64,000 bases of DNA from Escherichia phage ECD7, in the sequence record NC_041936.1; one strand, 5' to 3'. Each line of letters opens with the position of its first letter. The first letter of the stretch is position 1. This document shows positions 2,469 to 30,062 of the stretch, piece by piece. The translations under genes were made by a program, and so were the position numbers. Under the pieces are notes generated by a model, which saw nothing but the letters and a program-made list of their open reading frames with translations, searched no databases and was not told the DNA's origin.

Positions 2469-2604
2469 TTACCCCGAACTCGTTTACAATCTGCGCTTTA
2501 TAGTAACCACCGCGAGATGCTAATAGATAAGCTGGGCTTAGGTATTCGTATTCACGGATTTCTACTTGTGCGTTTTCAGTTTCCCAAATCAGTAAAGTCC
2601 ACAT
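2452..2604 (-). CDS. small hypothetical protein (about 50 aa)
   Basis: ORF 2452..2679 trimmed to the internal Met preceded by AGGAGAATCAAAT and lying downstream of the promoter at 2647-2675. Confidence 0.35.
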   Translation of the reverse strand: MWTLLIWETENAQVEIREYEYLSPAYLLASRGGYYKAQIVNEFGVIEYEF

Positions 2605-2646
2605 ATTTGATTCTCCTGTAAAGTTGTATCTCGTCTTGATGAATAT

Positions 2647-2675
2647 AGTATAGGGGATCTCGCGATCCCCGTCAA
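2647..2675 (-). promoter_or_regulatory. early sigma70-like promoter TTGACG-17-TATACT with palindromic spacer (GGGATC..GATCCC)
   Basis: Hexamers and spacing read on the minus strand; anchored to the ATG at 2679; followed by leader and SD AGGAGAATCAAAT. Confidence 0.5.
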
Positions 2676-2679
2676 GCAT

Positions 2680-3228
2680 TTATTTTAAATTTTTTCGAAT
2701 GTATTCAGACCATTCCTTCCCTGTCATTTCGGACCCGTTCTGGAAACTGAAATATTCATACGGCATCGAGTCAAGATAAAACAGGATCATACATCGCGCC
2801 ATATAATACCAATCACGATTAAAGTAAACTACGTTATCACCAGTACCATCAACCCCTTTATCATAACCATCGCGGGTACGGGCGACCCATTGAATAGTAT
2901 CATTTTTCTCGCGGATCGTAACAGGTTCCCAATATCCAGCACATCCAGCATGACCACACAAACAAGTCAGGAAATATTGACCTTTTGCTTTGTTGTCATC
3001 CCATTCACGATGGATTGGTTCGATCTCGTGAAACAGTGCTAAGCAATCATGATTATGCAACACTGGCTTACCATCAATCAATGCATGGAATGTATACAAA
3101 CGACCAGTAGACAAATAGCTATCCTCACGCTCAACCAGTTCAATAGCAATCTTTTTAGCTCGTTCTTTGTGTCGTTGTGCTTTACGCTTACGGTTTAATG
3201 ATTTCATATTCACCTCACACATTATCAA
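2680..3228 (-). CDS. hypothetical protein
   Basis: ORF track 182 aa; no recognised motif. Confidence 0.5.
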   Translation of the reverse strand: MIMCEVNMKSLNRKRKAQRHKERAKKIAIELVEREDSYLSTGRLYTFHALIDGKPVLHNHDCLALFHEIEPIHREWDDNKAKGQYFLTCLCGHAGCAGYWEPVTIREKNDTIQWVARTRDGYDKGVDGTGDNVVYFNRDWYYMARCMILFYLDSMPYEYFSFQNGSEMTGKEWSEYIRKNLK

Positions 3229-3770
3229 AGGTCGCGATATAGTACATTATGAAAATGAGAACTTGCATTACCAATATTGTAGATAATAAATTCTTCATCC
3301 GGCGCTTGCGCTACAAATTGAGTATGAGCAACCGCCACAACCTTAAAAATACGATCCGTGATCTTGTGTTTAATTTCGGCTCCTACTTCCATAGGAACAT
3401 ATTCATGTGTTTCTGTTTCAGTCGCAAAACAGCCATCTTCTTCATAAGCACGAACAAATCGATCGCAATCAGTACGCTTAACAAATTCAAGAGTATACAA
3501 TTCTCGTGAATTGTCGGTATAGACTAATACAGAATTATTCTGATAGCGAATCACATACAGGTTATTATCATCGTCAATTACGCAAAAGCTACGGATTTGT
3601 GTTCCTTCGCCTTTACTCCAGCAGATATTAACCACAGTTCCTCTAATAAAAAAACTTTCCTTTAAATTAAAACTAGCCAATGTGCTAGCGTGCATTTTAA
3701 CAACAACACCATCGCCAATTTCCAGTTTACGAAGTTTAACTTCTTTGCTCAGTACACAAAACATCATCAT
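3225..3770 (-). CDS. hypothetical protein
   Basis: ORF track 181 aa; promoter and SD upstream; ATGATGATG start. Confidence 0.5.
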   Translation of the reverse strand: MMMFCVLSKEVKLRKLEIGDGVVVKMHASTLASFNLKESFFIRGTVVNICWSKGEGTQIRSFCVIDDDNNLYVIRYQNNSVLVYTDNSRELYTLEFVKRTDCDRFVRAYEEDGCFATETETHEYVPMEVGAEIKHKITDRIFKVVAVAHTQFVAQAPDEEFIIYNIGNASSHFHNVLYRDL

Positions 3771-3799
3771 GTTGTCCTCTCGTTGTTTTCGATGTGAGC

Positions 3800-3827
3800 A
3801 TTATACATTAGCTAATCATGTTGTCAA
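3800..3827 (-). promoter_or_regulatory. early promoter TTGACA-16-TATAAT (AT palindrome ATTAGCTAAT in spacer)
   Basis: Consensus hexamers downstream of the nrdD terminator and upstream of the 3770 start. Confidence 0.55.
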
Positions 3828-3830
3828 CAC

Positions 3831-3864
3831 CCCAAAACGAAAAAGCCGACCCTTTCGGATCGGC
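3831..3864 (-). terminator. rho-independent terminator after nrdD
   Basis: Hairpin GCCGATCCGAAAGGGTCGGC followed by TTTTTCGTTTT on the minus strand. Confidence 0.6.
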
Positions 3865-3870
3865 TGAAAT

Positions 3871-5733
3871 TTACATGTGCTTAACGCGGTTTACCATCTC
3901 GGAGTGTTTCCCGTGATTAAATGGACGCAGATCAACAGATCCAAGATATCCACTAACGCGACGGATAACATTCATCTTTTCCAGATTGTCATTGCCGCAA
4001 TCAGGACAAACAAAACCAGACTCGGTCGCTCTCATTTCCTTATTAGATCCGCATACATGACATACATCAGAAGGAGTATTAACACCGAAGTAGTGCAATT
4101 TATCCATTGCATAGTCTACTACAGTTTCAAGACCTTTCAGGTTGTTTTTCATGTCTGGGAACTCAACATAAGAGATCATGCCACCGGACGCCAGCCAGTG
4201 ATAATCTTTCTCAAAGTCGATTTTCTCAAATGGTGTGACTTTCCGGTCTACGTCAAGGTGGAATGAGTTGGTGTACCAGTCTTTATCGGTAGCACCCTTA
4301 ACAATACCAAATTGCTCTCTGTCCAGTCGATTAAATCGATAGCAAAGGCTCTCGGCTGGCGTACCGTAAAGACTAAACCCAAGTCCGGTTTCATCCTTCC
4401 ATTTTTCAGTATAATGACGCAAGATCTTAAGAATATGTTTACCGTATCGCTGCGCATCTTCCGAATCAAACGGATGAACACCAAACAGGACGCTCAATAC
4501 CTCATGTAAACCAATATATCCAAGAGAGATACTAGCGCGACCATCTTTCAGAACTTCCAAAATTTCATCGTTTTGATGAATACGGAAAAATGCACCTTCG
4601 GTATACAGCACCGGAGCAACATTGGCTTTAGCACCTTTTAAAGCGTCTACGCGACTCATGAGAGCATCAAAGCAAATAGGCAGACGATTAGCTAGCTCTT
4701 GTTCGAATAGCTCAATTCTGCGCATTACAGACGCTTTACCAGCACGACGCGCGGCAATAAGAGCAATACGCGGAAGATTCAGAGTCACAACACCCAAGTT
4801 ATTGCGTCCGTCTAATACTTCCTCGCCTTTCTCATTATGCCACACACCCAGGAAGCTACGACAACCCATCGGGCTAACCGGAACACTAGATCCAGTGATA
4901 CTACGGTTATTCTTCGCAGAGATATAATCAGGGTAAAGACGCTTACTAGAACATTCCAATGCAAGTTGCTTAATGTCGTAGTTCGGATCTTCCGGTTTAA
5001 GGTTTAATCCTTCTTCTAAGAACATCACCAGCTTAGGAAACACCGGAGTGATACCATCTTTACCTAAACCTTTAGTTCGAACGTTCAGGATCGCTTTCTG
5101 AATCAGTTTTTCTTCCCAGCTAGTACCCATACCAAAGGTTAAAGTCACAAAAGGCGTTTGACCGTTGGTGGAGAACAAAGTGTTGATTTCATATTCCAAC
5201 GCTTGATACCCGTCTAAAGTTTCTTTTTCTGTCTTCTCTTGTGCATAGAGAGTATCAGCTTTGATTCCGTAGGTTTCGGCATCAGCAAGGTGTTTATGAT
5301 ATGTTTTCTCAACATACGGTGCTAACACCTGATCGATGTTTGCGATTGTGGTCCCGCCATATTGATGACTTGCCACCTGTGCGATAATTTGAGCGGTTAC
5401 AGCACAAGCAACGCCGATCGATTTCGGACTTTCGATTTGTGCGCTACCCAATTTAAAACCATTCTCTAACATGTCTTTGAGATTAACAAGACAGCAGTTA
5501 GTAAACGGCATAGCGGGTGCATAATCCATATCATGATAATGAATATCACCGTCTACATGCGCTTTATAGATGTGCTCAGGTAACACGGTTTTAGCAATCT
5601 GTTTAGACACAGCACCAGCAATCAGATCTCGACGTGTCGGGAATGTTCGCGCGTCTTTGTTCGCGTTCTCTTTGCTTACTTCGTTTTCTTTACCCGTTGC
5701 GATCTCTGTAATGTCTTTGATTAGTTTTTCCAT
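3871..5733 (-). CDS. nrdD: anaerobic ribonucleoside-triphosphate reductase (glycyl radical enzyme), uninterrupted
   Basis: 620 aa; C-terminal glycyl-radical motif RVSGYLG and Zn-ribbon CHVCGS...CPDCGN; no intron in the ORF. Confidence 0.95.
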   Translation of the reverse strand: MEKLIKDITEIATGKENEVSKENANKDARTFPTRRDLIAGAVSKQIAKTVLPEHIYKAHVDGDIHYHDMDYAPAMPFTNCCLVNLKDMLENGFKLGSAQIESPKSIGVACAVTAQIIAQVASHQYGGTTIANIDQVLAPYVEKTYHKHLADAETYGIKADTLYAQEKTEKETLDGYQALEYEINTLFSTNGQTPFVTLTFGMGTSWEEKLIQKAILNVRTKGLGKDGITPVFPKLVMFLEEGLNLKPEDPNYDIKQLALECSSKRLYPDYISAKNNRSITGSSVPVSPMGCRSFLGVWHNEKGEEVLDGRNNLGVVTLNLPRIALIAARRAGKASVMRRIELFEQELANRLPICFDALMSRVDALKGAKANVAPVLYTEGAFFRIHQNDEILEVLKDGRASISLGYIGLHEVLSVLFGVHPFDSEDAQRYGKHILKILRHYTEKWKDETGLGFSLYGTPAESLCYRFNRLDREQFGIVKGATDKDWYTNSFHLDVDRKVTPFEKIDFEKDYHWLASGGMISYVEFPDMKNNLKGLETVVDYAMDKLHYFGVNTPSDVCHVCGSNKEMRATESGFVCPDCGNDNLEKMNVIRRVSGYLGSVDLRPFNHGKHSEMVNRVKHM

Positions 5734-7565: not shown

Positions 7566-8128
7566 GCGTTAAATGACTTTTGGATCTCTTTCAGTTCAGC
7601 TACTTTATCGGCGCTATATTTTGCTTGATGTTCCATGCGCTTAATCTCACCTTTGATATAGGTTTCTAGCTTAGGTTTATTCTCAATCAGAAAATCTTTC
7701 AAGTCATCGGCATTTTTAAAGTATAGCTGATTATCAAAGCTAAAATCTTCCAGCGTCAATGATACCAAAGAAGACTTCGCAAACAAGTTAATCAGATCTT
7801 CCAGCGATTCTTCTTTCTTAACTGGTTTCATTTCTTCAAACTGCTTTTTAGTGATGCGTTTAAAGTATTTGCGCTCGCTTGCATCAATCATGATTGACGC
7901 GCCCTCATAATCATGAGTTTCTACCAAATACACTTTACCCATAACATTAACCGTAAGAACTTTAAAGCCCCTGTGAAGCACACCATACAGGAACTTGTTA
8001 TGTTGTGGATAGCGTTTAACAAATTCCTCTACGGACTCAGCATTACGGAAAGTGTAATAACGACCTCGTTCAAAAACAGCATCATTTGAAGACTTAGCCG
8101 GATACAATTTATACGTTTTCTGTACCAT
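7562..8128 (-). CDS. hypothetical protein, same module family
   Basis: ORF track 7562..8146; MVQKTYKLYP start; GFKVLTVNVMGKVYLVETHD...SERKYFKRI. Confidence 0.5.
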   Translation of the reverse strand: MVQKTYKLYPAKSSNDAVFERGRYYTFRNAESVEEFVKRYPQHNKFLYGVLHRGFKVLTVNVMGKVYLVETHDYEGASIMIDASERKYFKRITKKQFEEMKPVKKEESLEDLINLFAKSSLVSLTLEDFSFDNQLYFKNADDLKDFLIENKPKLETYIKGEIKRMEHQAKYSADKVAELKEIQKSFNA

Positions 8129-8142
8129 AATATAATCCTCTA

Positions 8143-8415
8143 TCATGTCACTAATTGAACAGCACGAAACAGAATGCGGTCACACGGAAGCAGCATAAAT
8201 TCCCAACGCGGATCAAAATCTTTAGCGGTGTATGTTTTCCCATCAACAGAGATTTCACTTACATAACCAATAGGTGACACTTTAAGAACAGTAAATCCAT
8301 TTTTGATTGCTTCGTAGGTATCTTTCAGACCTTCGTAGTCGTCCTCTAAGAAGTCTTTACGTGCTTGCTCAGATTTAAAAACATAGGCAACACCAGCTTT
8401 AAACATCTTACGCAT
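8143..8415 (-). CDS. hypothetical protein, related module
   Basis: ORF 8143..8475 trimmed to the Met preceded by GAAGGAGAATCAACA; GFTVLKVSPIGYVSEISVDG motif. Confidence 0.45.
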   Translation of the reverse strand: MRKMFKAGVAYVFKSEQARKDFLEDDYEGLKDTYEAIKNGFTVLKVSPIGYVSEISVDGKTYTAKDFDPRWEFMLLPCDRILFRAVQLVT

Positions 8416-22974: not shown

Positions 22975-23391
22975 TTAGAGAGATTCGGTAAAGGTACGCG
23001 CGATAACGTCACGCTGCTGGTCTGGAGTCAGACTATTGAAGCGCACTGCGTAACCAGAAACGCGAATTGTAAGCTGCGGGTACTTCTCAGGATGTTCAAC
23101 AGCGTCCAGCAACATTTCTCGTAACAATACGTTAACATTCAAATGCTGACCACCTTCGACAACCGGAGCACCATTATCTACAATGACAGGACGGAAGCTA
23201 GTTGTGTGCAGTGCCAGCGAATCGACGTCTTCTGCGGTGATCACATGGTCTTCTGCGAAAGTTTTACTAACAATTACTTTAGCGCCGATCAGTGCTTTCG
23301 GTTCGGATACCAGAATCATAGGCGCGAAGTGTCCACCAATAATAGTACCTTTATGCTCACCTTTCATGATTTGAATTGCTTTAAATTCCAT
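22975..23391 (-). CDS. grcA: autonomous glycyl radical cofactor (GrcA/YfiD-like)
   Basis: 138 aa; C-terminal [12 protein letters not shown]...[36 protein letters not shown] is close to E. coli GrcA; T4 is known to carry a YfiD homolog. Confidence 0.85.
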
Positions 23392-23527: not shown

Positions 23528-24012
23528 TAGTTGATACCTAAGCCAATGAAAATAGGTTGGTCTTCTACACTACCCCTTCCAACACTAAATCGATTTACTT
23601 CTAAAAACTGCAATACGCTGTCAGTAAATCCGCGCATGGTAGTATCTAGGATAAAAATTGTTTTGTCAAGACTACGACCTCGCCAAGTGATCGGATTCAG
23701 GAAAGTTCGGATAGACGTACAATCTACATTTGAAATATTTACATTTTCACCGCGACCGCGATCTCGGATCGTTTTGGCATGTTCCCGCGTCGTTGAAACG
23801 ATAAAGACACTATAGCCTTTTCTAGTATAATGGTCATATAACTTGATTGTAGCGTCTGTATGCCCTGTCTGACGTCCTAAATTGATTGAGACGATGGAAT
23901 CTAGGTCATCAGCAAAATTGCGTCGCTTACGGCGTTCTATGATGCCATTTACGGCAGAAATACACGCAGCATAAATCAAATCTTTACTTTCTAATTTTAC
24001 ATCAATATTCAT
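23527..24012 (-). CDS. hypothetical protein
   Basis: ORF track 161 aa; SD GGAG; GC hairpin just upstream. Confidence 0.45.
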   Translation of the reverse strand: MNIDVKLESKDLIYAACISAVNGIIERRKRRNFADDLDSIVSINLGRQTGHTDATIKLYDHYTRKGYSVFIVSTTREHAKTIRDRGRGENVNISNVDCTSIRTFLNPITWRGRSLDKTIFILDTTMRGFTDSVLQFLEVNRFSVGRGSVEDQPIFIGLGIN

Positions 24013-24028
24013 GGTAAAGTCTCCAGTG

Positions 24029-24061
24029 AACGGGGAGAGATCCTTAGATTGTCTCCCCGTT
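24029..24061 (-). promoter_or_regulatory. GC-rich 10-bp stem-loop (AACGGGGAGA..TCTCCCCGTT) without U-tract, between the endolysin and the next gene
   Basis: Perfect inverted repeat with 13-nt loop; shares the CGGGGAGA arm with hairpins near nrdD and gene 19. Confidence 0.4.
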
Positions 24062-24074
24062 GATGGTTAATATT

Positions 24075-24464
24075 TTATTTTGGATCTGGGTATTTGCTGT
24101 GTGGTAGCTGAAAATGAACACCGTCTTTAAACGATACCCAATCCCCACCCCATTCAACAGAAACACCCAATTCTCGACCAGCTTGTTTAAATGCATCCGC
24201 GATCATGCGGTAGTATTTCATGTTCCATGTATCCTTATCTTTCGGATACGCTACAACGTCAACCGCTAAACCGTGAAGATGACGAGATTTCATAGTCTTA
24301 GATTTACCTTCCGCAACATATTTCTTTTGCGTTTCTAGACTACGTACACCTTCCGTAATACCAAAATCGACCGGAGTCAGTTCTAATGCACGATGAACGA
24401 CTTTTACCAGATCAGGATGCACACCAACAAGCCGATCTTTGCTTCTTTGAGATAATTTAAACAT
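24075..24464 (-). CDS. endolysin, L-alanyl-D-glutamate peptidase (peptidase M15 family)
   Basis: 129 aa; SRHLHGLAVDV and DGVHFQL are the Zn-binding His/Asp/His motifs of M15 peptidases (T5 endolysin type). Confidence 0.7.
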   Translation of the reverse strand: MFKLSQRSKDRLVGVHPDLVKVVHRALELTPVDFGITEGVRSLETQKKYVAEGKSKTMKSRHLHGLAVDVVAYPKDKDTWNMKYYRMIADAFKQAGRELGVSVEWGGDWVSFKDGVHFQLPHSKYPDPK

Positions 24465-24493
24465 TATTCACCCCCCTTTGTGAGTGATAATAT

Positions 24494-24685
24494 TTAGATT
24501 CCGGCGATCCTGCATATAGTTCTTGTATTAGCACCAATCAGGATCGCATTAACGACAACCATTCCCCAATCAACCCACTGATTATTATAAATGCTAAACC
24601 CGTTTGCAAGACCAAATACAAGCATTCCGGTACACATACTCAGAGCAATAATCAACATCACGGTAAAACCAAATGCAAATCTCAT
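24494..24685 (-). CDS. small hydrophobic membrane protein
   Basis: ORF track 63 aa; two TM-like segments. Confidence 0.4.
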   Translation of the reverse strand: MRFAFGFTVMLIIALSMCTGMLVFGLANGFSIYNNQWVDWGMVVVNAILIGANTRTICRIAGI

Positions 24686-24686
24686 A

Positions 24687-24953
24687 TTATTTTCCTTTTC
24701 TCTGTTTACGTTTATAAAAGTAATACATTACCTCATCGCGTCCGGTGATCCAACATGCTAGGGCGGTAAACAGGTTTACAATTCCCAACACACCTACGGA
24801 TGCGGCGCTGTCAACAGACATAGGAACAGTAAAGGCCATAGCTAACATAGCAACGCCACAAATGACATTAAGCACCATTATAATAAGACCGAAGAAAACC
24901 ATTGTCAATCCTCCCAAATAAGAAAACCAACAATCACGCCAGTGATAAGACAT
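24687..24953 (-). CDS. small hydrophobic membrane protein
   Basis: ORF track 88 aa. Confidence 0.4.
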   Translation of the reverse strand: MSYHWRDCWFSYLGGLTMVFFGLIIMVLNVICGVAMLAMAFTVPMSVDSAASVGVLGIVNLFTALACWITGRDEVMYYFYKRKQRKGK

Positions 24954-25096
24954 GATGCGCCGCTAATAAGACAACCCGCGCCAAGTGATTCCCACCAGAT
25001 CAGAGAAGCGACAATAACACAGAATCCCCATACTACCGCAATCACAACATAGGCAAGGGTCGCCCAAAACATATATTTGTTCATAATAAATCCCAT
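24905..25096 (-). CDS. small hydrophobic membrane protein
   Basis: ORF track 63 aa. Confidence 0.4.
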   Translation of the reverse strand: MGFIMNKYMFWATLAYVVIAVVWGFCVIVASLIWWESLGAGCLISGASCLITGVIVGFLIWED

Positions 25097-25254
25097 TCAC
25101 CAAACAAATAAGAAAAAAGCCATATCAACAGAAACGAGGCAATTGATCCGGCAAGCAAAATGATATTAGAGAATCCGCCGTCTATCCAGCGACAAAACAG
25201 AATACGCCAGTATAGAAGCATAAACCCAGTACAAAGCATACTATAAGCAACCAT
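25081..25254 (-). CDS. small hydrophobic protein (57 aa, not in ORF track)
   Basis: Hand-translated MVAYSMLCTGFMLLYWRILFCRW...; fills an otherwise non-coding gap. Confidence 0.3.
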   Translation of the reverse strand: MVAYSMLCTGFMLLYWRILFCRWIDGGFSNIILLAGSIASFLLIWLFSYLFGEWDLL

Positions 25255-25315
25255 AGAAAGCCCTCCAGTGAGCTAATTTAGTGCGGGTAGTACATTACCC
25301 TACCCGTATTGTTAA

Positions 25316-25474
25316 TCATCGCAGAGCTTCTTCTAGCGCGATCCCAAACCATCCACAAACAACGCCCATACAGACAGCTACAAGAAGATTCATTCTCTCT
25401 TTAGGAATCATTGCAATCATAACAACAACCATACAGAAAGCCATTACCATTGAAGTTAACATTTGTTCAACCAT
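25316..25474 (-). CDS. small hydrophobic protein (52 aa, not in ORF track)
   Basis: Hand-translated MVEQMLTSMVMAFCMVVVMIAMIPKERMNLLVAVCMGVVCGWFGIALEEALR. Confidence 0.3.
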   Translation of the reverse strand: MVEQMLTSMVMAFCMVVVMIAMIPKERMNLLVAVCMGVVCGWFGIALEEALR

Positions 25475-25476
25475 TA

Positions 25477-25815
25477 TCACACCTTTAAAGTCATAGACGC
25501 ATAAACATTAATGCCAGTCCAGTTAGGATCGCAATTATACTCAACATCCCACAAATAAAGCGGTTTAGATGTATCAGCCAAGTTTTTAAAATCTTCTACC
25601 CACATTTCAAGGCTATATGATGGATAAACTAGGCTATCATATCCGCCGTAACGTTGGCCTACTGGTCGGTCAGTAAAAACTACCTCAAGATCCGGTAATT
25701 CTTTTTCAAGGATAACCGCCAGCGCATAAATCAGACGGTCTTCCTTGTTACGCTGCCGAAGGACCGTTGTCAGTTGGGTTTTCTGGTTCACTAGCAAGCA
25801 CCTCCACATTTTCAC
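25477..25815 (-). CDS. hypothetical protein
   Basis: ORF track 112 aa; overlaps upstream ORF by 68 nt. Confidence 0.4.
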   Translation of the reverse strand: MKMWRCLLVNQKTQLTTVLRQRNKEDRLIYALAVILEKELPDLEVVFTDRPVGQRYGGYDSLVYPSYSLEMWVEDFKNLADTSKPLYLWDVEYNCDPNWTGINVYASMTLKV

Positions 25816-26068
25816 AGAATGAAATTTTCACAGACACAATTTTACCATAAGTGAAGAATGAATATACATTATCGAGATATTCAACGTCACCTACAATCAC
25901 ATCAAACTGCGGATCAGCAACTGCCGCAACATATTCTACCAGTTCATCAAGAGAATGCAACTTAATTTCATCAATTCGGCTGTATTTGGTTGCATCTTTA
26001 ATTTTAAAACCACGTTCTTTCAGCTTGTCAATCAGAATTTCACGCGGAGTTTCAAACAGTTTGCTCAT
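25748..26068 (-). CDS. hypothetical protein
   Basis: ORF track 106 aa; SD GAGGATTATATT. Confidence 0.45.
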   Translation of the reverse strand: MSKLFETPREILIDKLKERGFKIKDATKYSRIDEIKLHSLDELVEYVAAVADPQFDVIVGDVEYLDNVYSFFTYGKIVSVKISFCENVEVLASEPENPTDNGPSAA

Positions 26069-26089
26069 AATATAATCCTCACATTAAAT

Positions 26090-26290
26090 CTAAAATTTGT
26101 TAACGACGAATTGCATAATTAGACTAATCACAAACATTGCAAACCAAGTATAAATGCAACAGATAAAAGCTACATACAATTCAATCTGGTCAGAGAATAC
26201 ACCGGGTAAAAGCATTAGCAAAATAACAACAGTAAAGACGCTAGCGATACCCGCAACAAAACCAATATCATTTTTACTAATCGTCATCAA
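26090..26290 (-). CDS. small hydrophobic membrane protein
   Basis: ORF track 66 aa. Confidence 0.4.
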   Translation of the reverse strand: MMTISKNDIGFVAGIASVFTVVILLMLLPGVFSDQIELYVAFICCIYTWFAMFVISLIMQFVVNKF

Positions 26291-26496
26291 GTCACCGTTT
26301 TGTAAAGAAACACAATAAAATCCAAGACAAGAAAGACAGTGTAAATGATCATCGTCAAGACAGTAAACACTGTCAAATTTTCATCGTTAGTTAATTCATA
26401 GTCGCCCATCCATACAATAACAAGATATAGCATTGAAAGAATGGAAGCACCTACGAAGTTAAAAAACATATTCTTGAGCGTCATATTAACAACCAT
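26287..26496 (-). CDS. small hydrophobic membrane protein
   Basis: ORF track 69 aa. Confidence 0.4.
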   Translation of the reverse strand: MVVNMTLKNMFFNFVGASILSMLYLVIVWMGDYELTNDENLTVFTVLTMIIYTVFLVLDFIVFLYKTVT

Positions 26497-26668
26497 CGCG
26501 GCTTAAGTCAACAACAATTGCATACAGCATAATGAATATGCTAGCAGATCCGAGAATCAATGCACCCTCACATTTTGAAACTCGCTCATCAAAATGTAAC
26601 ATTATCCATCCGAGGATGTTAAAGGCGCAGACCGCGCCTATGTTCGCTAACCAATTAATCTTTTTCAT
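26486..26668 (-). CDS. small hydrophobic membrane protein
   Basis: ORF track 60 aa. Confidence 0.4.
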   Translation of the reverse strand: MKKINWLANIGAVCAFNILGWIMLHFDERVSKCEGALILGSASIFIMLYAIVVDLSRDGC

Positions 26669-26676
26669 AATATACC

Positions 26677-27003
26677 TTAGAAAGAAACAGTTTTCAAGAA
26701 ATCCAGATTTTTAGTACCGAAAACAGAAAAGTAGTGTTTTCCTTTTTCGGTTTTAGAGAAAGCGATTGTCTTCTCTACATGGTGACGGAAGCCAGACAGA
26801 CGATCACCCAGGTCAAGGCGGCAAGCGTAAGTAGTGCCGTTTTCGAAAGTAACCTCGATTTGAGTTTTGTCATATTCGCTTTCATAGGCTTTTGCTGCCG
26901 CGTCCTGTGCTTTACGCTCGAAGTCTTCGAAGTGGAATACTTCGTTTGCGTTAGCGAATACAGAAGATTCAGAGAAGATAACTTTAACAGATACTGGTTT
27001 CAT
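26677..27003 (-). CDS. hypothetical protein
   Basis: ORF track 108 aa; promoter cassette at 27046-27074. Confidence 0.45.
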   Translation of the reverse strand: MKPVSVKVIFSESSVFANANEVFHFEDFERKAQDAAAKAYESEYDKTQIEVTFENGTTYACRLDLGDRLSGFRHHVEKTIAFSKTEKGKHYFSVFGTKNLDFLKTVSF

Positions 27004-27045
27004 TTTGATACTCCTTAGTAGTTCGTGTTTCGTTTCGATGGGTGT

Positions 27046-27074
27046 ATTATGCTATACACCCTCTCTCGTGTCAA
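27046..27074 (-). promoter_or_regulatory. early promoter TTGACA-17-CATAAT with stem-loop GGGTGTAT/ATACACCC
   Basis: Upstream of the 27003 start. Confidence 0.5.
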
Positions 27075-27083
27075 CAACTTTTT

Positions 27084-27272
27084 TTAGTCTTTTTTCAAAA
27101 TTTTTAAGGCAGTTTCTACAGCACCTTTCCAACCCTCCCACATAATGGACATAGTAATGAAGTTAAAGCACCCGCAGGAATCAACCTTTTTAGAGATAAA
27201 CCATTCAACAAATCCTTCGCTCATACCATGCTCTTTAGCGGATTCGCGTAATTGTTCAATTTGGTCTTCCAT
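27084..27272 (-). CDS. hypothetical protein
   Basis: ORF track 62 aa. Confidence 0.4.
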   Translation of the reverse strand: MEDQIEQLRESAKEHGMSEGFVEWFISKKVDSCGCFNFITMSIMWEGWKGAVETALKILKKD

Positions 27273-27281
27273 AGTATCACC

Positions 27282-27482
27282 TCAACACTTAACGTTATTC
27301 AAACGATTTTGAAAGTACATATAGCAAGCATAATTTTGCTTTGGTTGTACCGTATCAGATAGACACGCTTTTGCAGCCTCGCGGTCCGATGGATCTACAC
27401 CCTCAGCTTTAAGTAATGCTAAAATCTGGTTATAGCGTACTCTTAGCTGTACTAATGGTTTCTCTCCCACAAAACCCTCCAA
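27282..27482 (-). CDS. hypothetical protein
   Basis: ORF track 66 aa. Confidence 0.4.
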   Translation of the reverse strand: MEGFVGEKPLVQLRVRYNQILALLKAEGVDPSDREAAKACLSDTVQPKQNYACYMYFQNRLNNVKC

Positions 27483-27710
27483 TTAAAGTTGTTCTGCAAT
27501 GTATGCGGTGCATTTGCGGAGTTTAGCCATAGCACCACCTTTCATGTCGCTTGCGCCTACAATGTTCATGATCTCTAAGCGATCAGCCGGATTCAGTCTA
27601 GTAGCCCAGATCTGGTTAGCCAGTTCCATTTTACCCATCTGCGGTTCCATCTCAAACATTTCACGCTCAAAGTCGATAATTTCTTTTGCTGCGTCTTTAA
27701 AGTTAATCAT
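27483..27710 (-). CDS. hypothetical protein
   Basis: ORF track 75 aa; promoter at 27740-27768. Confidence 0.4.
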   Translation of the reverse strand: MINFKDAAKEIIDFEREMFEMEPQMGKMELANQIWATRLNPADRLEIMNIVGASDMKGGAMAKLRKCTAYIAEQL

Positions 27711-27739
27711 TTTGGTCCTCCCGTTTCGTTGATGGTTGT

Positions 27740-27768
27740 ATTGTAGGGGAGTTATCCTCCCCTGTCAA
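27740..27768 (-). promoter_or_regulatory. early promoter TTGACA-17-TACAAT whose spacer is the palindrome GGGGAGGATAACTCCCC
   Basis: Anchored between the 27777 stop and the 27710 start. Confidence 0.5.
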
Positions 27769-27776
27769 CACTTTTA

Positions 27777-27962
27777 TCAGAAATATGCAATATAGTTTGC
27801 CAGTCCTACAGAGTCATCATTCGGCATTGCTTTTACCGCCAGTTCAAACCCTGCTTCAACTTTCTGTTTAGCGGATTCTTCGTTATAACCCCAGATGACC
27901 AGAATAGCTACTACGTTTTCTTTGCTTACTGCTTTCAGTGCTTTAGTGATGCGACGTGCCAT
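27777..27962 (-). CDS. hypothetical protein
   Basis: ORF track 61 aa; promoter at 28009-28037. Confidence 0.4.
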   Translation of the reverse strand: MARRITKALKAVSKENVVAILVIWGYNEESAKQKVEAGFELAVKAMPNDDSVGLANYIAYF

Positions 27963-28008
27963 AATTTGATTCTCCGTTTAAGAAAGTGTGTTTCGTTTCG
28001 ATGGGTGT

Positions 28009-28037
28009 ATTATGCTATAGGCGTGATCTGGTGTCAA
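28009..28037 (-). promoter_or_regulatory. early promoter TTGACA-17-CATAAT (near-identical copy of the 27046 cassette core)
   Basis: Shares about 30 nt with the cassette at 27020-27055. Confidence 0.5.
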
Positions 28038-28054
28038 CAACTTTTTTAAAAATT

Positions 28055-28088
28055 TTAGGCAATAAAAAAGCCACTCCGAAGAGTGGCT
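28055..28088 (-). terminator. rho-independent terminator
   Basis: Hairpin AGCCACTCTTCGGAGTGGCT + TTTTTTATT on the minus strand. Confidence 0.6.
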
Positions 28089-28237
28089 TATAGGGAAGGT
28101 AGCGAATCTTCCTTGTCTCCAACCTGCTAGCGGCCTAGCAAGTGAATGCTTTAGCGTACCGGATCACCCCATACGCTGTAATAAATGCGGCTAGGTGACG
28201 TCCAAATCATTCTAACCGCGCTGTCTTTAGTTCACTA

Positions 28238-28456
28238 TTATTTATATCGCTTTCTCTCGCGACGTTTTTGATCTTCTTCCTTGATAGAGTTAAACGCATC
28301 AAAAAGACACATGACACTGATAATGAACATAACCGTATTTTCTACGATATCCCACGGCTTCGCATCAGTACAGATCCCCCAAACGGTAAGAAATGCAAAT
28401 AGTGCAGAAGAGATCACAAGCATGATACTTGCTAAGATATAAAAAGTCATTTTCAT
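28238..28456 (-). CDS. small hydrophobic membrane protein
   Basis: ORF track 72 aa. Confidence 0.4.
   Translation of the reverse strand: MKMTFYILASIMLVISSALFAFLTVWGICTDAKPWDIVENTVMFIISVMCLFDAFNSIKEEDQKRRERKRYK
28239..28246 (-). promoter_or_regulatory. TATAAATA late-promoter-like box overlapping the last codons of gene 28238..28456
   Basis: Exact match to the T4 late -10 consensus on the minus strand, facing a 150-nt non-coding stretch that ends at a terminator; could be chance. Confidence 0.3.
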
Positions 28457-28647
28457 GGTTTTACCTCAATTCTTCGATATTCATCACACATCCACGCAGT
28501 AAGCAAGAATCCCAGCACATAAGCAACAAAATACGTTAATGCTTCTTCTGGTTTCGTGCTATGTATCATCAGTAAACCAGCGAGAACGGTCTTAACAATT
28601 ACATTTAAAATAATTAGCCACGCAAATAATTTCATCGTTTGCCCCAT
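28453..28647 (-). CDS. small hydrophobic membrane protein
   Basis: ORF track 64 aa. Confidence 0.4.
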   Translation of the reverse strand: MGQTMKLFAWLIILNVIVKTVLAGLLMIHSTKPEEALTYFVAYVLGFLLTAWMCDEYRRIEVKP

Positions 28648-28871
28648 TTCGGTCGAGTCTTTTCAAACTTATACATTACGTAACAATCTCGAATCATCCA
28701 CGTAACAAGAGCACCAGTCAACACAGACAACACACAGAAGAAGTAAAACGGTCCGGTTGCATTATCAACATGAGCAAGCCATGTAAAGAAAACACATGCT
28801 AAGAATGTAAAGAACATCATAAAACACAAGAAAGCAAAATATTTTATGCTACTCATAGCGCCACCATACAA
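28632..28871 (-). CDS. small hydrophobic membrane protein
   Basis: ORF track 79 aa. Confidence 0.4.
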   Translation of the reverse strand: MYGGAMSSIKYFAFLCFMMFFTFLACVFFTWLAHVDNATGPFYFFCVLSVLTGALVTWMIRDCYVMYKFEKTRPKWGKR

Positions 28872-28959
28872 CAGATCATAAGAAAACCCAACGCAATAAG
28901 AATTGCATCAAATTTAGTGAACTCCGGTCCACCTATCAACATCATTCGTTCCTGTTCAT

Positions 28960-29202
28960 TCATAGATCACAGAGCCATCTGAAAGCACCACATAAAGCGA
29001 GCAGAATACTAGGTATAAACGAGACTAAAACAAGTTGGCAAAAATCATCTAAGGTAACACCGGAATAGCTACCTACTGTAACAACACCGATCATCAGACA
29101 CAGAAAGAAAACAAATGCAATCAGAAACAAAGTATTGCTAAACAGTTTAGTGATCATTAGACACCCCACGACGATCAATTTCAAAAACTTTTTTATCATC
29201 AA
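28960..29202 (-). CDS. small hydrophobic membrane protein
   Basis: ORF track 80 aa. Confidence 0.4.
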   Translation of the reverse strand: MMIKKFLKLIVVGCLMITKLFSNTLFLIAFVFFLCLMIGVVTVGSYSGVTLDDFCQLVLVSFIPSILLALCGAFRWLCDL

Positions 29203-29350
29203 CGAAGCATGTCACAACTGCCTCGTTGACTTCCGCAAATTGTTGTGTTACCCACTTAAGGTCAGAGCGAAACAATGTTCTATTAATAACAAATGTTTTA
29301 CCGCTCTTATCCTTACCCATAAATTTTGCTTTAACCATATCCAATTCCAT
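29147..29350 (-). CDS. hypothetical protein
   Basis: ORF track 67 aa. Confidence 0.4.
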   Translation of the reverse strand: MELDMVKAKFMGKDKSGKTFVINRTLFRSDLKWVTQQFAEVNEAVVTCFVDDKKVFEIDRRGVSNDH

Positions 29351-29359
29351 ATTATCACC

Positions 29360-29518
29360 TTATTTGCTAATCGCTAAACCCAATCCGAAGAGAGCACCCG
29401 ATGCTACAGTATACACGAAAGTTTCAAAGGCAGTAAAGATATCTAAGCCACCAGCTAACAGAGTTGCAGTAAACAGAGTACCAGCTACGAACATAAAAGT
29501 TTTACCGATAAATTTCAT
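29360..29518 (-). CDS. small hydrophobic protein (52 aa, not in ORF track)
   Basis: Hand-translated MKFIGKTFMFVAGTLFTATLLAGGLDIF...; preceded by AAGGAGAATCAAG and the promoter at 29550-29578. Confidence 0.35.
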   Translation of the reverse strand: MKFIGKTFMFVAGTLFTATLLAGGLDIFTAFETFVYTVASGALFGLGLAISK

Positions 29519-29549
29519 CTTGATTCTCCTTTCGTTTGTTTGTGGGGGT

Positions 29550-29578
29550 ATCTTACTACCCCCGTTTCATGTTGTCAA
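29550..29578 (-). promoter_or_regulatory. early promoter TTGACA-17-TAAGAT with stem-loop GGGGGTA/TACCCCC
   Basis: Between the 29585 stop and the small ORF start at 29518. Confidence 0.5.
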
Positions 29579-29584
29579 CTGTTT

Positions 29585-29959
29585 TTAAGAAAATTTTACT
29601 TCGTCTACAATGTCTTTCATGACATTGATTTCCATTCCGGTCAGAACACGTTGGAACATGTGCTGAACATACGCTTTCAGGTATTCATTTGACGGCTTGC
29701 TATCAAAAGTCTTTTTAGTGTAGTAGTCATCACCGAAAGCTACTGTAATTACATTTTCGTCGTCATTCCAAGCGATATAAGCAAATTTGCCGTTATCCCA
29801 GAAGCGAGCACTAATTGCTACTTTTGTTGAATCGAATCCTAATTCGCTGTGAGATTCAAGAACTACTTGCGTGCCAGTTTCTTTATGAATGTAGTAGCGG
29901 GATACTAAGTCAAAGTTACGGGTGTAGTGACATTCGAATTTATCTTTAAACATCATCAT
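29585..29959 (-). CDS. hypothetical protein
   Basis: ORF 29585..30028 trimmed to MMMF behind AGGAGAATCAAA; promoter near 29997-30025. Confidence 0.45.
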   Translation of the reverse strand: MMMFKDKFECHYTRNFDLVSRYYIHKETGTQVVLESHSELGFDSTKVAISARFWDNGKFAYIAWNDDENVITVAFGDDYYTKKTFDSKPSNEYLKAYVQHMFQRVLTGMEINVMKDIVDEVKFS

Positions 29960-29996
29960 TTTGATTCTCCTAAGTGTGTTTCGTTTCGATATGTGT

Positions 29997-30025
29997 ATTA
30001 TTCTATAGTCGTTTATGGTTGTCAA
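29997..30025 (-). promoter_or_regulatory. early promoter TTGACA-17-AATAAT
   Basis: Downstream of the terminator after the acb1-like gene; coordinates anchored to the 30069 stop. Confidence 0.45.
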
Positions 30026-30029
30026 CACC

Positions 30030-30062
30030 TAAAAACAAAAAACCCCGAAAAATTTTCGGGGT
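30030..30062 (-). terminator. rho-independent terminator after the acb1-like gene
   Basis: Hairpin ACCCCGAAAATTTTTCGGGGT + TTTTTGTTTTT on the minus strand. Confidence 0.6.

Follow-up and report, generated by a model that had tools for sequence, protein, structure and literature searches.

What are the very small hydrophobic genes that crowd a 5-kb region of Escherichia phage ECD7, and what could they do for the phage? Few parts of phage genomes are as poorly understood as the small membrane proteins, and the handful of characterised ones, such as T4 Imm, holins, and antiholins, control entry to or exit from the infected cell. We analysed a window of 64,000 nucleotides (nt) of the ECD7 sequence (NC_041936.1), to which all positions refer, and concentrated on 14 hydrophobic open reading frames (ORFs) at 24494-29518, of which 13 encode 52-74 amino acids (aa) and one 29-36 aa. 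Each ORF is named by the letter h and its first coordinate (e.g., h28238 for 28238-28456). They are genuine genes, not chance ORFs. Taken as a whole, the best explanation, to which we assign an even chance, is that they encode lineage-restricted, early accessory inner-membrane proteins for exclusion or counter-defence.

A dense set of genuine small genes

Megablast of the region 24000-30000 retrieved 57 phage records with 93-98% identity, all of them Krischvirus (RB49, Phi1, JSE, GEC-3S, and relatives), and the window is thus an RB49/Phi1/GEC-3S-like T4-type coliphage; an earlier sequence-only reading of this DNA had referred to T-even phages, whereas Krischvirus is pseudo-T-even. Both GC skew and the ORF list place all genes from about 22 to 36 kb on the minus strand, and transcription proceeds from high to low coordinates. 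The hydrophobic ORFs are therefore transcriptionally upstream (5') of the endolysin gene, and the earlier statement that they are downstream of it holds in plus-strand coordinates only. In the direction of transcription, the order is 57B (30539-30069), a soluble 124-aa ORF, block A (29518-28238) around dmd, four small soluble ORFs, an LPD25-domain ORF, block B (26668-26090), two soluble ORFs, block C (25474-24494), and the M15-peptidase endolysin (Table 1).

The sequence-only reading had counted at least 13 small hydrophobic ORFs at 24.5-29.5 kb, which somewhat understated the case, as there are 14 and they have a predicted hairpin architecture in common; the 14 ORFs have a grand average of hydropathy (GRAVY) of 0.32-1.63 vs. 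-0.55 to +0.08 for their 10 soluble neighbours. The three ORFs below 60 aa that it had pointed out (h25081, h25316, and h29360) do exist with upstream Shine-Dalgarno (SD)-like signals and, for h29360, a promoter. Their absence from the ORF list is true but is merely due to the 60-aa cutoff, and they are annotated in RB49 as ORF106, ORF107, and ORF124, respectively. The density was also rightly described as unusual: small membrane genes account for 14 of 24 genes here, whereas a rough greedy ORF call for the remainder of the 64 kb yields about 5 among about 83 (Fisher p = 1e-7).

Stops are absent from all 858 codons of the annotated frames but occur at 7-9 per 100 codons when this DNA is read in the other two frames, and T occupies 48% of the second codon positions of the hydrophobic ORFs. 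The ORFs tile the strand, and translation signals, set beforehand as a test of the sequence-only reading, are found on every ORF as an SD-like site or an overlap with the preceding stop (six ATGA overlaps). Starts were refined by SD sites, stop/start overlaps, and public annotations; some longest-ORF coordinates overshoot the likely starts (e.g., 24687-24902 rather than 24687-24953). The reading frames are kept in relatives as well, which was the other test. The ORFs are syntenic and intact across 11 Krischvirus loci with few exceptions (frameshift, fusion, loss, replacement), and two divergent metagenome contigs (L093 and L094), found via a 77-78%-identical relative of 26090-26287, retain the whole gene order with all ORFs open. 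Within the genus, with each distinct codon change counted once and pooled, the ratio of nonsynonymous to synonymous change (dN/dS, or omega) is 0.29 for the hydrophobic set vs. 0.18 for the soluble neighbours. At the synonymous divergence (dS) of ∼0.45 that separates the window from L093/L094, omega is 0.26 for the hydrophobic vs. 0.21 for the soluble genes, and most members have values of 0.09-0.30.

Predicted membrane architecture

Hydropathy profiles have two clear spans in 10 ORFs, one clear and one weaker span in three, and a single span in one, amounting to 10 clear two-helix hairpins, three probable ones, and one single-span protein. AlphaFold2 without an alignment gave a helix-turn-helix for both ORFs that were modelled, with helices at residues 2-29 and 34-71 in h28238 (predicted local distance difference test score, pLDDT, 85) and at 2-25 and 32-69 in h24687 (pLDDT 71). 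A Foldseek search of the h28238 model against BFVD had no match at E ≤ 1e-3, only generic helical hairpins; a fold search cannot discriminate two-helix proteins.

We infer membrane insertion and topology of the 14 proteins from their sequences. Lys or Arg is present within the first six residues of 10 of the 14, the inter-helix loops are acidic without Lys/Arg in 9 of 13, and three members have strongly basic C-terminal tails. By the positive-inside rule, these features suggest that most members are hairpins with both termini in the cytoplasm (N-in/C-in) and a short acidic periplasmic loop. The exception is h25316, whose inter-helix loop (PKERMN) is basic and whose topology is probably inverted. 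None of the 14 has a periplasmic domain of the kind used by RI- or Sp-type proteins; likewise, when the 14 sequences were read for spanin features, none had a periplasmic domain of more than ∼15 residues or a lipobox of the form [LVI][ASTVI][GAS]C. The idea that the loops are better conserved than the transmembrane (TM) helices was not supported (24% vs. 20% variable positions, p = 0.23).

Promoters and operons

Five sigma70-type sites matching 10-11 of 12 consensus positions, with 17-nt spacers, are found in intergenic positions on the minus strand (30025, 29578, 28037, 27768, and 27074), and intrinsic-terminator hairpins are present just upstream of two of them (30062-30042 and 28089-28068). 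These elements form cassettes upstream of the gene modules (30062-29997, 29578-29542, and 28089-28009, plus the promoters at 27768 and 27074) that have the anatomy of PeSLs, in which a sigma70 promoter is joined to a stem-loop. In the cassette at 29578, a G/C-run stem-loop (29565-29542) is situated between and over the hexamers, and a 69-nt repeat cassette is present in three copies that are 61-84% identical (27025-27093, 27988-28056, and 29976-30044). GEC-3S carries promoter and terminator annotations at matching sites. Experiments in the RB49/Phi1 group have demonstrated promoter and terminator activity of PeSLs, which border the ORFans of hyperplastic regions (Arbiol et al., 2010, PMC2839356).

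By this layout, block A forms a single operon that comprises the promoter at 29578, h29360, dmd, five further hydrophobic ORFs, and the terminator at 28089. Block B follows the LPD25 gene behind the promoter at 27074, and block C runs into the endolysin gene without a recognisable terminator. The promoter type points to early expression of these ORFs. The late promoter motif TATAAATA has a single copy in the region (28239-28246, at the 3' end of h28238), and its five matches in the window equal chance expectation. A further sigma70 site on the minus strand (24880-24908, TTGACA-17-TATTAT, 11/12) spans the h24905/h24687 junction; if active, it would yield transcripts that start inside h24687 and continue into h24494 and the endolysin gene.

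Restriction to the genus and plasticity between close relatives

Public annotation already covers all 14 ORFs (ORF103-107, 110-112, 118-122, and 124 in RB49; also Phi1, JSE, and GEC-3S), and 11 of the 14 are labelled 'putative membrane protein' in W115. Each matches its own small PHROG of 'unknown' function, with profile lengths equal to the RB49 protein lengths. Pfam and NCBIfam scans of the 14 found nothing near a curated cutoff, and no holin, immunity, or toxin family was matched in Pfam, NCBIfam, or PHROG, RI and RIII being covered via these libraries and not compared directly. T4 Imm, Sp, 61.1, 61.2, 61.4, e.2-e.4, and trna.4 were compared directly with the 14, at the level of noise. In a tblastn of the 14 concatenated proteins against 50,697 phage records, the matches were confined to the 57 Krischvirus records. 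HMMER with h24687 against 1.84 billion representatives found its own cluster only, and h26090 has five 90%-identity clusters, 74-97% identical, among 5.8 billion proteins. Judged by sequence similarity, the 14 genes are restricted to Krischvirus. An origin of the array by tandem duplication was rejected at detectable levels, as all-against-all blastp and phmmer gave no significant pair; the sole hint of paralogy is a weak similarity of the C-terminal tails of h24687 and h28632 (E = 0.013). Our literature search found no paper addressing the products of these ORFs. They are uncharacterised, already annotated ORFans in a known hyperplastic region, and nothing here overturns current understanding.

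The flanks are 97-99% identical between phages, yet gene content differs. In six of the 11 relatives (JSE, MIZ4, phiS, Whisky, Makalu_001, and SFHK24), h26287 and h26090 are replaced by a single 64-66-aa hairpin, which is 34% identical to h26090 (E = 3e-10). The h26287 gene has a 1-nt indel in W115 and JK32, JK32 has a tandem duplication in the ORF106/107 area, and ORF105 and ORF106 are fused in Whisky. In the window itself, h25081 is a private allele of RB49 ORF106 (62 aa). Its ancestral ATG has been lost through a deletion of 14 nt between TCTATGG repeats (junction 25258/25257), and a further deletion of 1 nt (25190/25189), which lies 65 nt into the new ORF, brings back the frame. Due to these two deletions, the first 22 aa are read in another frame. 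The PHROG match spans residues 11-57 only. The extra 15 nt are present in all 19 phage records covering a 111-nt probe around the deletions, and the double frameshift could be real or a sequencing artefact.

Possible functions of the hydrophobic proteins

The sequence-only reading had proposed superinfection exclusion, immunity, or lysis regulation, which is a reasonable analogy. In the explanation that we favour, the ORFs would be expressed early, in polycistronic, translationally coupled operons driven by sigma70-type PeSLs, and would constitute a set of accessory genes, each dispensable by itself and liable to be shuffled, duplicated, or replaced from one near-identical phage to the next. 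Each protein would insert in the inner membrane of the infected cell and bind a membrane-resident target. That target may be the DNA-translocation machinery of superinfecting phages, as in Imm-like exclusion, or host membrane-acting abortive-infection or toxin effectors, in which case the proteins would extend the anti-toxin operon of dmd. Three lines of reasoning favour an early accessory role at membrane-resident targets. Block A shares an operon with dmd, which in T4 belongs to an anti-toxin island (see below). T4 Imm, the best understood of the small T4 membrane proteins, blocks genome entry through a loop that binds the incoming tape-measure protein (bioRxiv 10.64898/2026.03.06.709160); RB49 has no imm at the syntenic uvsX-43 position, and Imm and Sp had no match in the window or in RB49 at 12-30 kb. 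Counter-defence genes are, in general, overrepresented in the variable accessory regions of phages. Among the abortive-infection effectors of hosts, some are small membrane proteins in their own right (bioRxiv 10.1101/2023.04.06.535777).

Several points weigh against this explanation. We infer exclusion or counter-defence from analogy and gene neighbourhood; none of the 14 ORFs resembles Imm, TifA, AdfA, or another characterised protein in sequence. The absence of imm was checked in the window and in RB49 at 12-30 kb, not in the whole genome. Blocks B and C are not adjacent to dmd. The promoters are identified by consensus matches and third-party annotation. Two members are weakly constrained (h28960, omega 0.66; h26090, omega 0.81 vs. 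L093), and because several isolates carry frameshifted or fused copies (ORF106 of the window, h26287 in W115 and JK32, ORF105/106 in Whisky), some members may contribute little.

An unlikely alternative is that the proteins are host-takeover toxins, i.e., generic membrane-perturbing or transporter-inhibiting factors for an early shutdown of host membrane functions. Many small bacterial membrane peptides are toxic, and both the early promoters and the very hydrophobic hairpins of 52-74 aa would suit such a role. Expression driven by a cloned PeSL was also reported to be deleterious (PMC2839356). However, 14 different and individually conserved sequences exceed the needs of generic perturbation, and the purifying selection is sequence-specific (e.g., none of 48 TM positions is variable in h28632). 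None of the 14 resembles Hok, TisB, or any other toxin family (HokA scores 10.6 bits vs. a cutoff of 89), and most of the ORFs have two TM segments, where type I toxins (Hok/Gef) are expected to have a single one.

It is quite improbable, in our estimate, that these are mostly young or nearly neutral genes, i.e., that T-rich accessory DNA between PeSLs readily yields open hydrophobic frames, many of them recently born or decaying, of little function, and kept by linkage. In its favour, the genes are genus-restricted ORFans without paralogy, genomes that are 97-99% identical elsewhere differ here by frameshifts, fusions, duplications, and allelic replacements, and omega is 0.66-0.81 in two members. 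The +1 frame is also hydrophobic (mean GRAVY 0.88), and the frameshifted N-terminus of h25081 is mostly hydrophobic bar two arginines, although it was not scored separately. Against this, pooled omega is 0.26-0.29, all ORFs are intact in L093 and L094, and stops abound in the other frames. The two deletions in ORF106 moreover leave the downstream frame intact, which is what selection on the C-terminal part would lead one to expect.

A bolder reading, which we regard as a long shot, makes the hyperplastic region a nursery: T-rich DNA between mobile promoter cassettes would repeatedly yield two-helix membrane hairpins, de novo or by frameshift, and the phage would keep them as a combinatorial battery of intramembrane inhibitors, each tuned to its own membrane-embedded target. 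These targets would be the tape-measure/injection channels of competitor phages or the small pore-forming abortive-infection effectors of the host, and the swap of h26090 for a 34%-identical allele and the frame-restoring deletions of ORF106 would be snapshots of an arms race.

We also give little credence to a lysis cassette, in which block C, and perhaps other members, would be of holin, antiholin, or pinholin type, would have come with or serve the M15 endolysin, and would control lysis timing. Five hydrophobic ORFs are located directly 5' of the endolysin gene on the same strand with no terminator between, and the endolysin belongs to the M15 peptidases rather than to the lysozymes of T4 e type. 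The architecture of class II holins and pinholins such as S21 (65-75 aa, two TM segments, predicted N-in/C-in, charged C-terminal tail) fits h24687, h28632, and h28238, with their basic tails and, in h28238, an MKM start, and faint sub-threshold Pfam holin matches were seen (E 0.15-0.96). However, the holin families of Pfam, NCBIfam, and PHROGs all stay below threshold (best scores: Phage_holin_3_5, 12.4 bits vs. a cutoff of 27; Phage_holin_3_6, 12.5 bits vs. 28.4), and the promoters are early-type, with the late motif at chance frequency. The presence in RB49 of t, the canonical gene for the T holin, makes the role less likely. The endolysin has no TM window; as it carries neither a signal nor a signal-anchor-release (SAR) segment, it would not be released by a pinholin, and h28238 is 3.8 kb away from it, behind a terminator. 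The 14 ORFs have no homologue in 80 IMG/VR loci (0.92 Mb) flanking the closest endolysin relatives; co-inheritance is thereby rejected, and the ORFs did not travel with the endolysin.

The coliphage genus is in therapeutic use, and its 14 unrelated conserved hairpins within 5 kb, of which one block is co-operonic with dmd, make a compact and easily deletable test bed for a role of such proteins in superinfection exclusion or in the neutralisation of membrane-acting host defences. The set also bears on the origin and turnover of ORFan membrane genes.

Neighbouring genes

The LPD25 gene (26677-27003, minus strand) heads the operon of block B and encodes a stand-alone 108-aa protein that is one LPD25 domain (PF18840, 53.7 bits), otherwise known from large polyvalent proteins of mobile elements. 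The soluble 61-aa ORF at 27777-27962 (minus strand) corresponds to DUF7421 in a related contig and has 71-78% nt-identical homologues in many T1-like coliphages of ∼50 kb (SECphi27, tonnikala, pSf-2, and others), unlike the rest of the 5.6-kb query, which has no match outside Krischvirus; these homologues suggest gene exchange between T4-type and T1-type phages. Three genes past the endolysin, the vs.6 equivalent (22975-23391, minus strand) carries a glycyl-radical domain; PF01228 matches its L093 orthologue, and the orthologue in W115 is annotated 'autonomous glycyl radical cofactor'. A 191-aa ORF is present between the endolysin and vs.8 in JSE (7818-8393 of locus L005), phiS, and Whisky and is absent from the window; a 'Homing endonuclease' is annotated under the two-piece match of vB_Eco_SAP, and it may or may not be the same as the 191-aa insert.

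Table 1. Features of the region in minus-strand order, with regulatory elements last (TM, predicted transmembrane segment).
Feature	Position	Coordinates	Strand	Description	Start signal	Conservation	Family
h29360 (ORF124 equivalent)	Block A, first gene after early-type promoter, directly 5' of dmd	29360-29518	-	52 aa, two hydrophobic segments; GRAVY 1.20	AGGAG SD	Intact in 11/11 relatives; event-count dN/dS 0.17	phrog_16462
dmd	Inside block A	29147-29350	-	Soluble; antitoxin against RnlA/LsoA			PF17587, 58.6 bits (cutoff 27); phrog_2102
h28960 (ORF122 equivalent)	Block A	28960-29157	-	65 aa, two TM; GRAVY 1.63, computed on the 80-aa longest ORF (28960-29202), not the 65-aa form	Start overlaps dmd 3' end by 11 nt	Intact in 11/11 relatives yet fast-evolving, dN/dS 0.66	phrog_17225
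h28853 (ORF121 equivalent)	Block A	28853-28963	-	29-36 aa, single TM	ATGA overlap with previous stop (36 aa) or AGGA + ATG at 28942 (29 aa)		phrog_15282
h28632 (ORF120 equivalent)	Block A	28632-28856	-	74 aa, two TM, basic C-terminal tail	ATGA-coupled	0/48 TM residues variable among 6 alleles; dN/dS 0.13	
h28453 (ORF119 equivalent)	Block A	28453-28635	-	60 aa, probable two TM	ATGA-coupled		phrog_15717
h28238 (ORF118 equivalent)	Block A, last	28238-28456	-	72 aa, probable two TM, MKM N-terminus, very basic tail	GAGG SD + ATGA overlap	dN/dS 0.09-0.13	
h26486 (ORF112 equivalent)	Block B, first, 9 nt after LPD25 gene	26486-26668	-	60 aa, two TM		83-87% aa identity in L093 and L094, omega 0.27-0.28	phrog_16425
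h26287 (ORF111 equivalent)	Block B	26287-26484	-	65 aa, two TM, acidic loop			phrog_21837
h26090 (ORF110 equivalent)	Block B	26090-26287	-	65 aa, two TM			
h25316 (ORF107 equivalent)	Block C, first	25316-25474	-	52 aa, two TM, basic loop	AAGGTG upstream		phrog_16035
h25081 (ORF106 equivalent, private allele)	Block C	25081-25254	-	57 aa	GGAGG upstream		
h24905 (ORF105 equivalent)	Block C	24905-25084	-	59 aa, two TM, glycine-rich TM2	ATGA-coupled	90% aa identity to L093, omega 0.13	phrog_16151
h24687 (ORF104 equivalent)	Block C	24687-24902	-	71 aa, two TM, basic C-terminal tail	GGAGG SD	dN/dS 0.15-0.22	
h24494 (ORF103 equivalent)	Block C, directly 5' of endolysin	24494-24685	-	63 aa, hydrophobic	AGGA SD	omega 0.11 vs. 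L093	phrog_15016
Endolysin	Next gene after block C	24075-24464	-	Soluble M15 peptidase			PF13539; phrog_465
PeSL-type early promoter cassette	Upstream of h29360	29542-29578	-	-35 TTGACA 29578-29573, -10 TAAGAT 29555-29550, 17-nt spacer			
PeSL	End of block A	28009-28089	-	Terminator hairpin 28089-28068, then promoter TTGACA-17-CATAAT 28037-28009			
Stem-loop	61-nt ORF107-ORF106 gap	25284-25306	-	CGGGTAG...CTACCCG, no T-run after; 'terminator' in G2494			

Comparison with known systems

T4 Imm (PF14373) resembles the 14 proteins in being a small (83 aa), early, helical inner-membrane protein of comparable GRAVY (0.97). It differs in sequence, with no PF14373 match at E ≤ 1 and phmmer and blastp scores below 5 bits against the 14 ORFs, and in its model, which has a helix 1 and a core of helices 2-4 (bioRxiv 10.64898/2026.03.06.709160), vs. 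two helices here. The gene imm is moreover located between genes 42 and 43 in T4, and RB49 has nothing there.

The PeSL-flanked ORFans described by Arbiol et al. (2010, PMC2839356) belong to the same RB49/Phi1 group, have a sigma70 promoter and stem-loop upstream of orphan ORFs, and vary in gene content among close relatives, as h26287/h26090, JK32, and Whisky do here. That study, however, treats the mechanism of shuffling and not the products, and a search of its text found no discussion of membrane proteins among the ORFans.

In T4, dmd, tifA (61.4), and adfA (61.2) form an anti-toxin island in an early operon (Srikant et al., 2022, PMC9391042). Block A, and block A only, is similar in that dmd is co-operonic with small accessory genes behind an early-type promoter, but the T4 neighbours of dmd are soluble (GRAVY -0.3 to -1.1), whereas its partners here are predicted membrane hairpins. 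T4 61.4 and 61.2 gave no phmmer or blastp score above noise against the 14 ORFs, and synteny with the T4 neighbours of dmd (61.4, sp, 61.2, and 61.1) was rejected, as those are soluble or secreted and unrelated.

In a T4-like contig of 163 kb (IMGVR_UViG_2706796082_000001, locus L046), whose endolysin is 60% identical to that of the window, four to five tandem, coupled membrane ORFs (2579-3934 and 4858-5427) are present upstream of the endolysin gene. The ending ...CRG(E/KK) shared by three of them suggests paralogy, and judged by eye the tails of these ORFs resemble those of T4 e.3/e.4. In T4 itself, e.3/e.4 and trna.4 occupy the syntenic slot between 57B and e and share the two-TM character, but e.3/e.4 are 120-130 aa long with a cytoplasmic tail domain and have no sequence similarity to the 14. 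The T4 interval holds trna.4, e.3, e.4, and perhaps e.2, i.e., three to four genes vs. 14 in Krischvirus. Different lineages seem to fill this one genomic slot with membrane proteins from different families.

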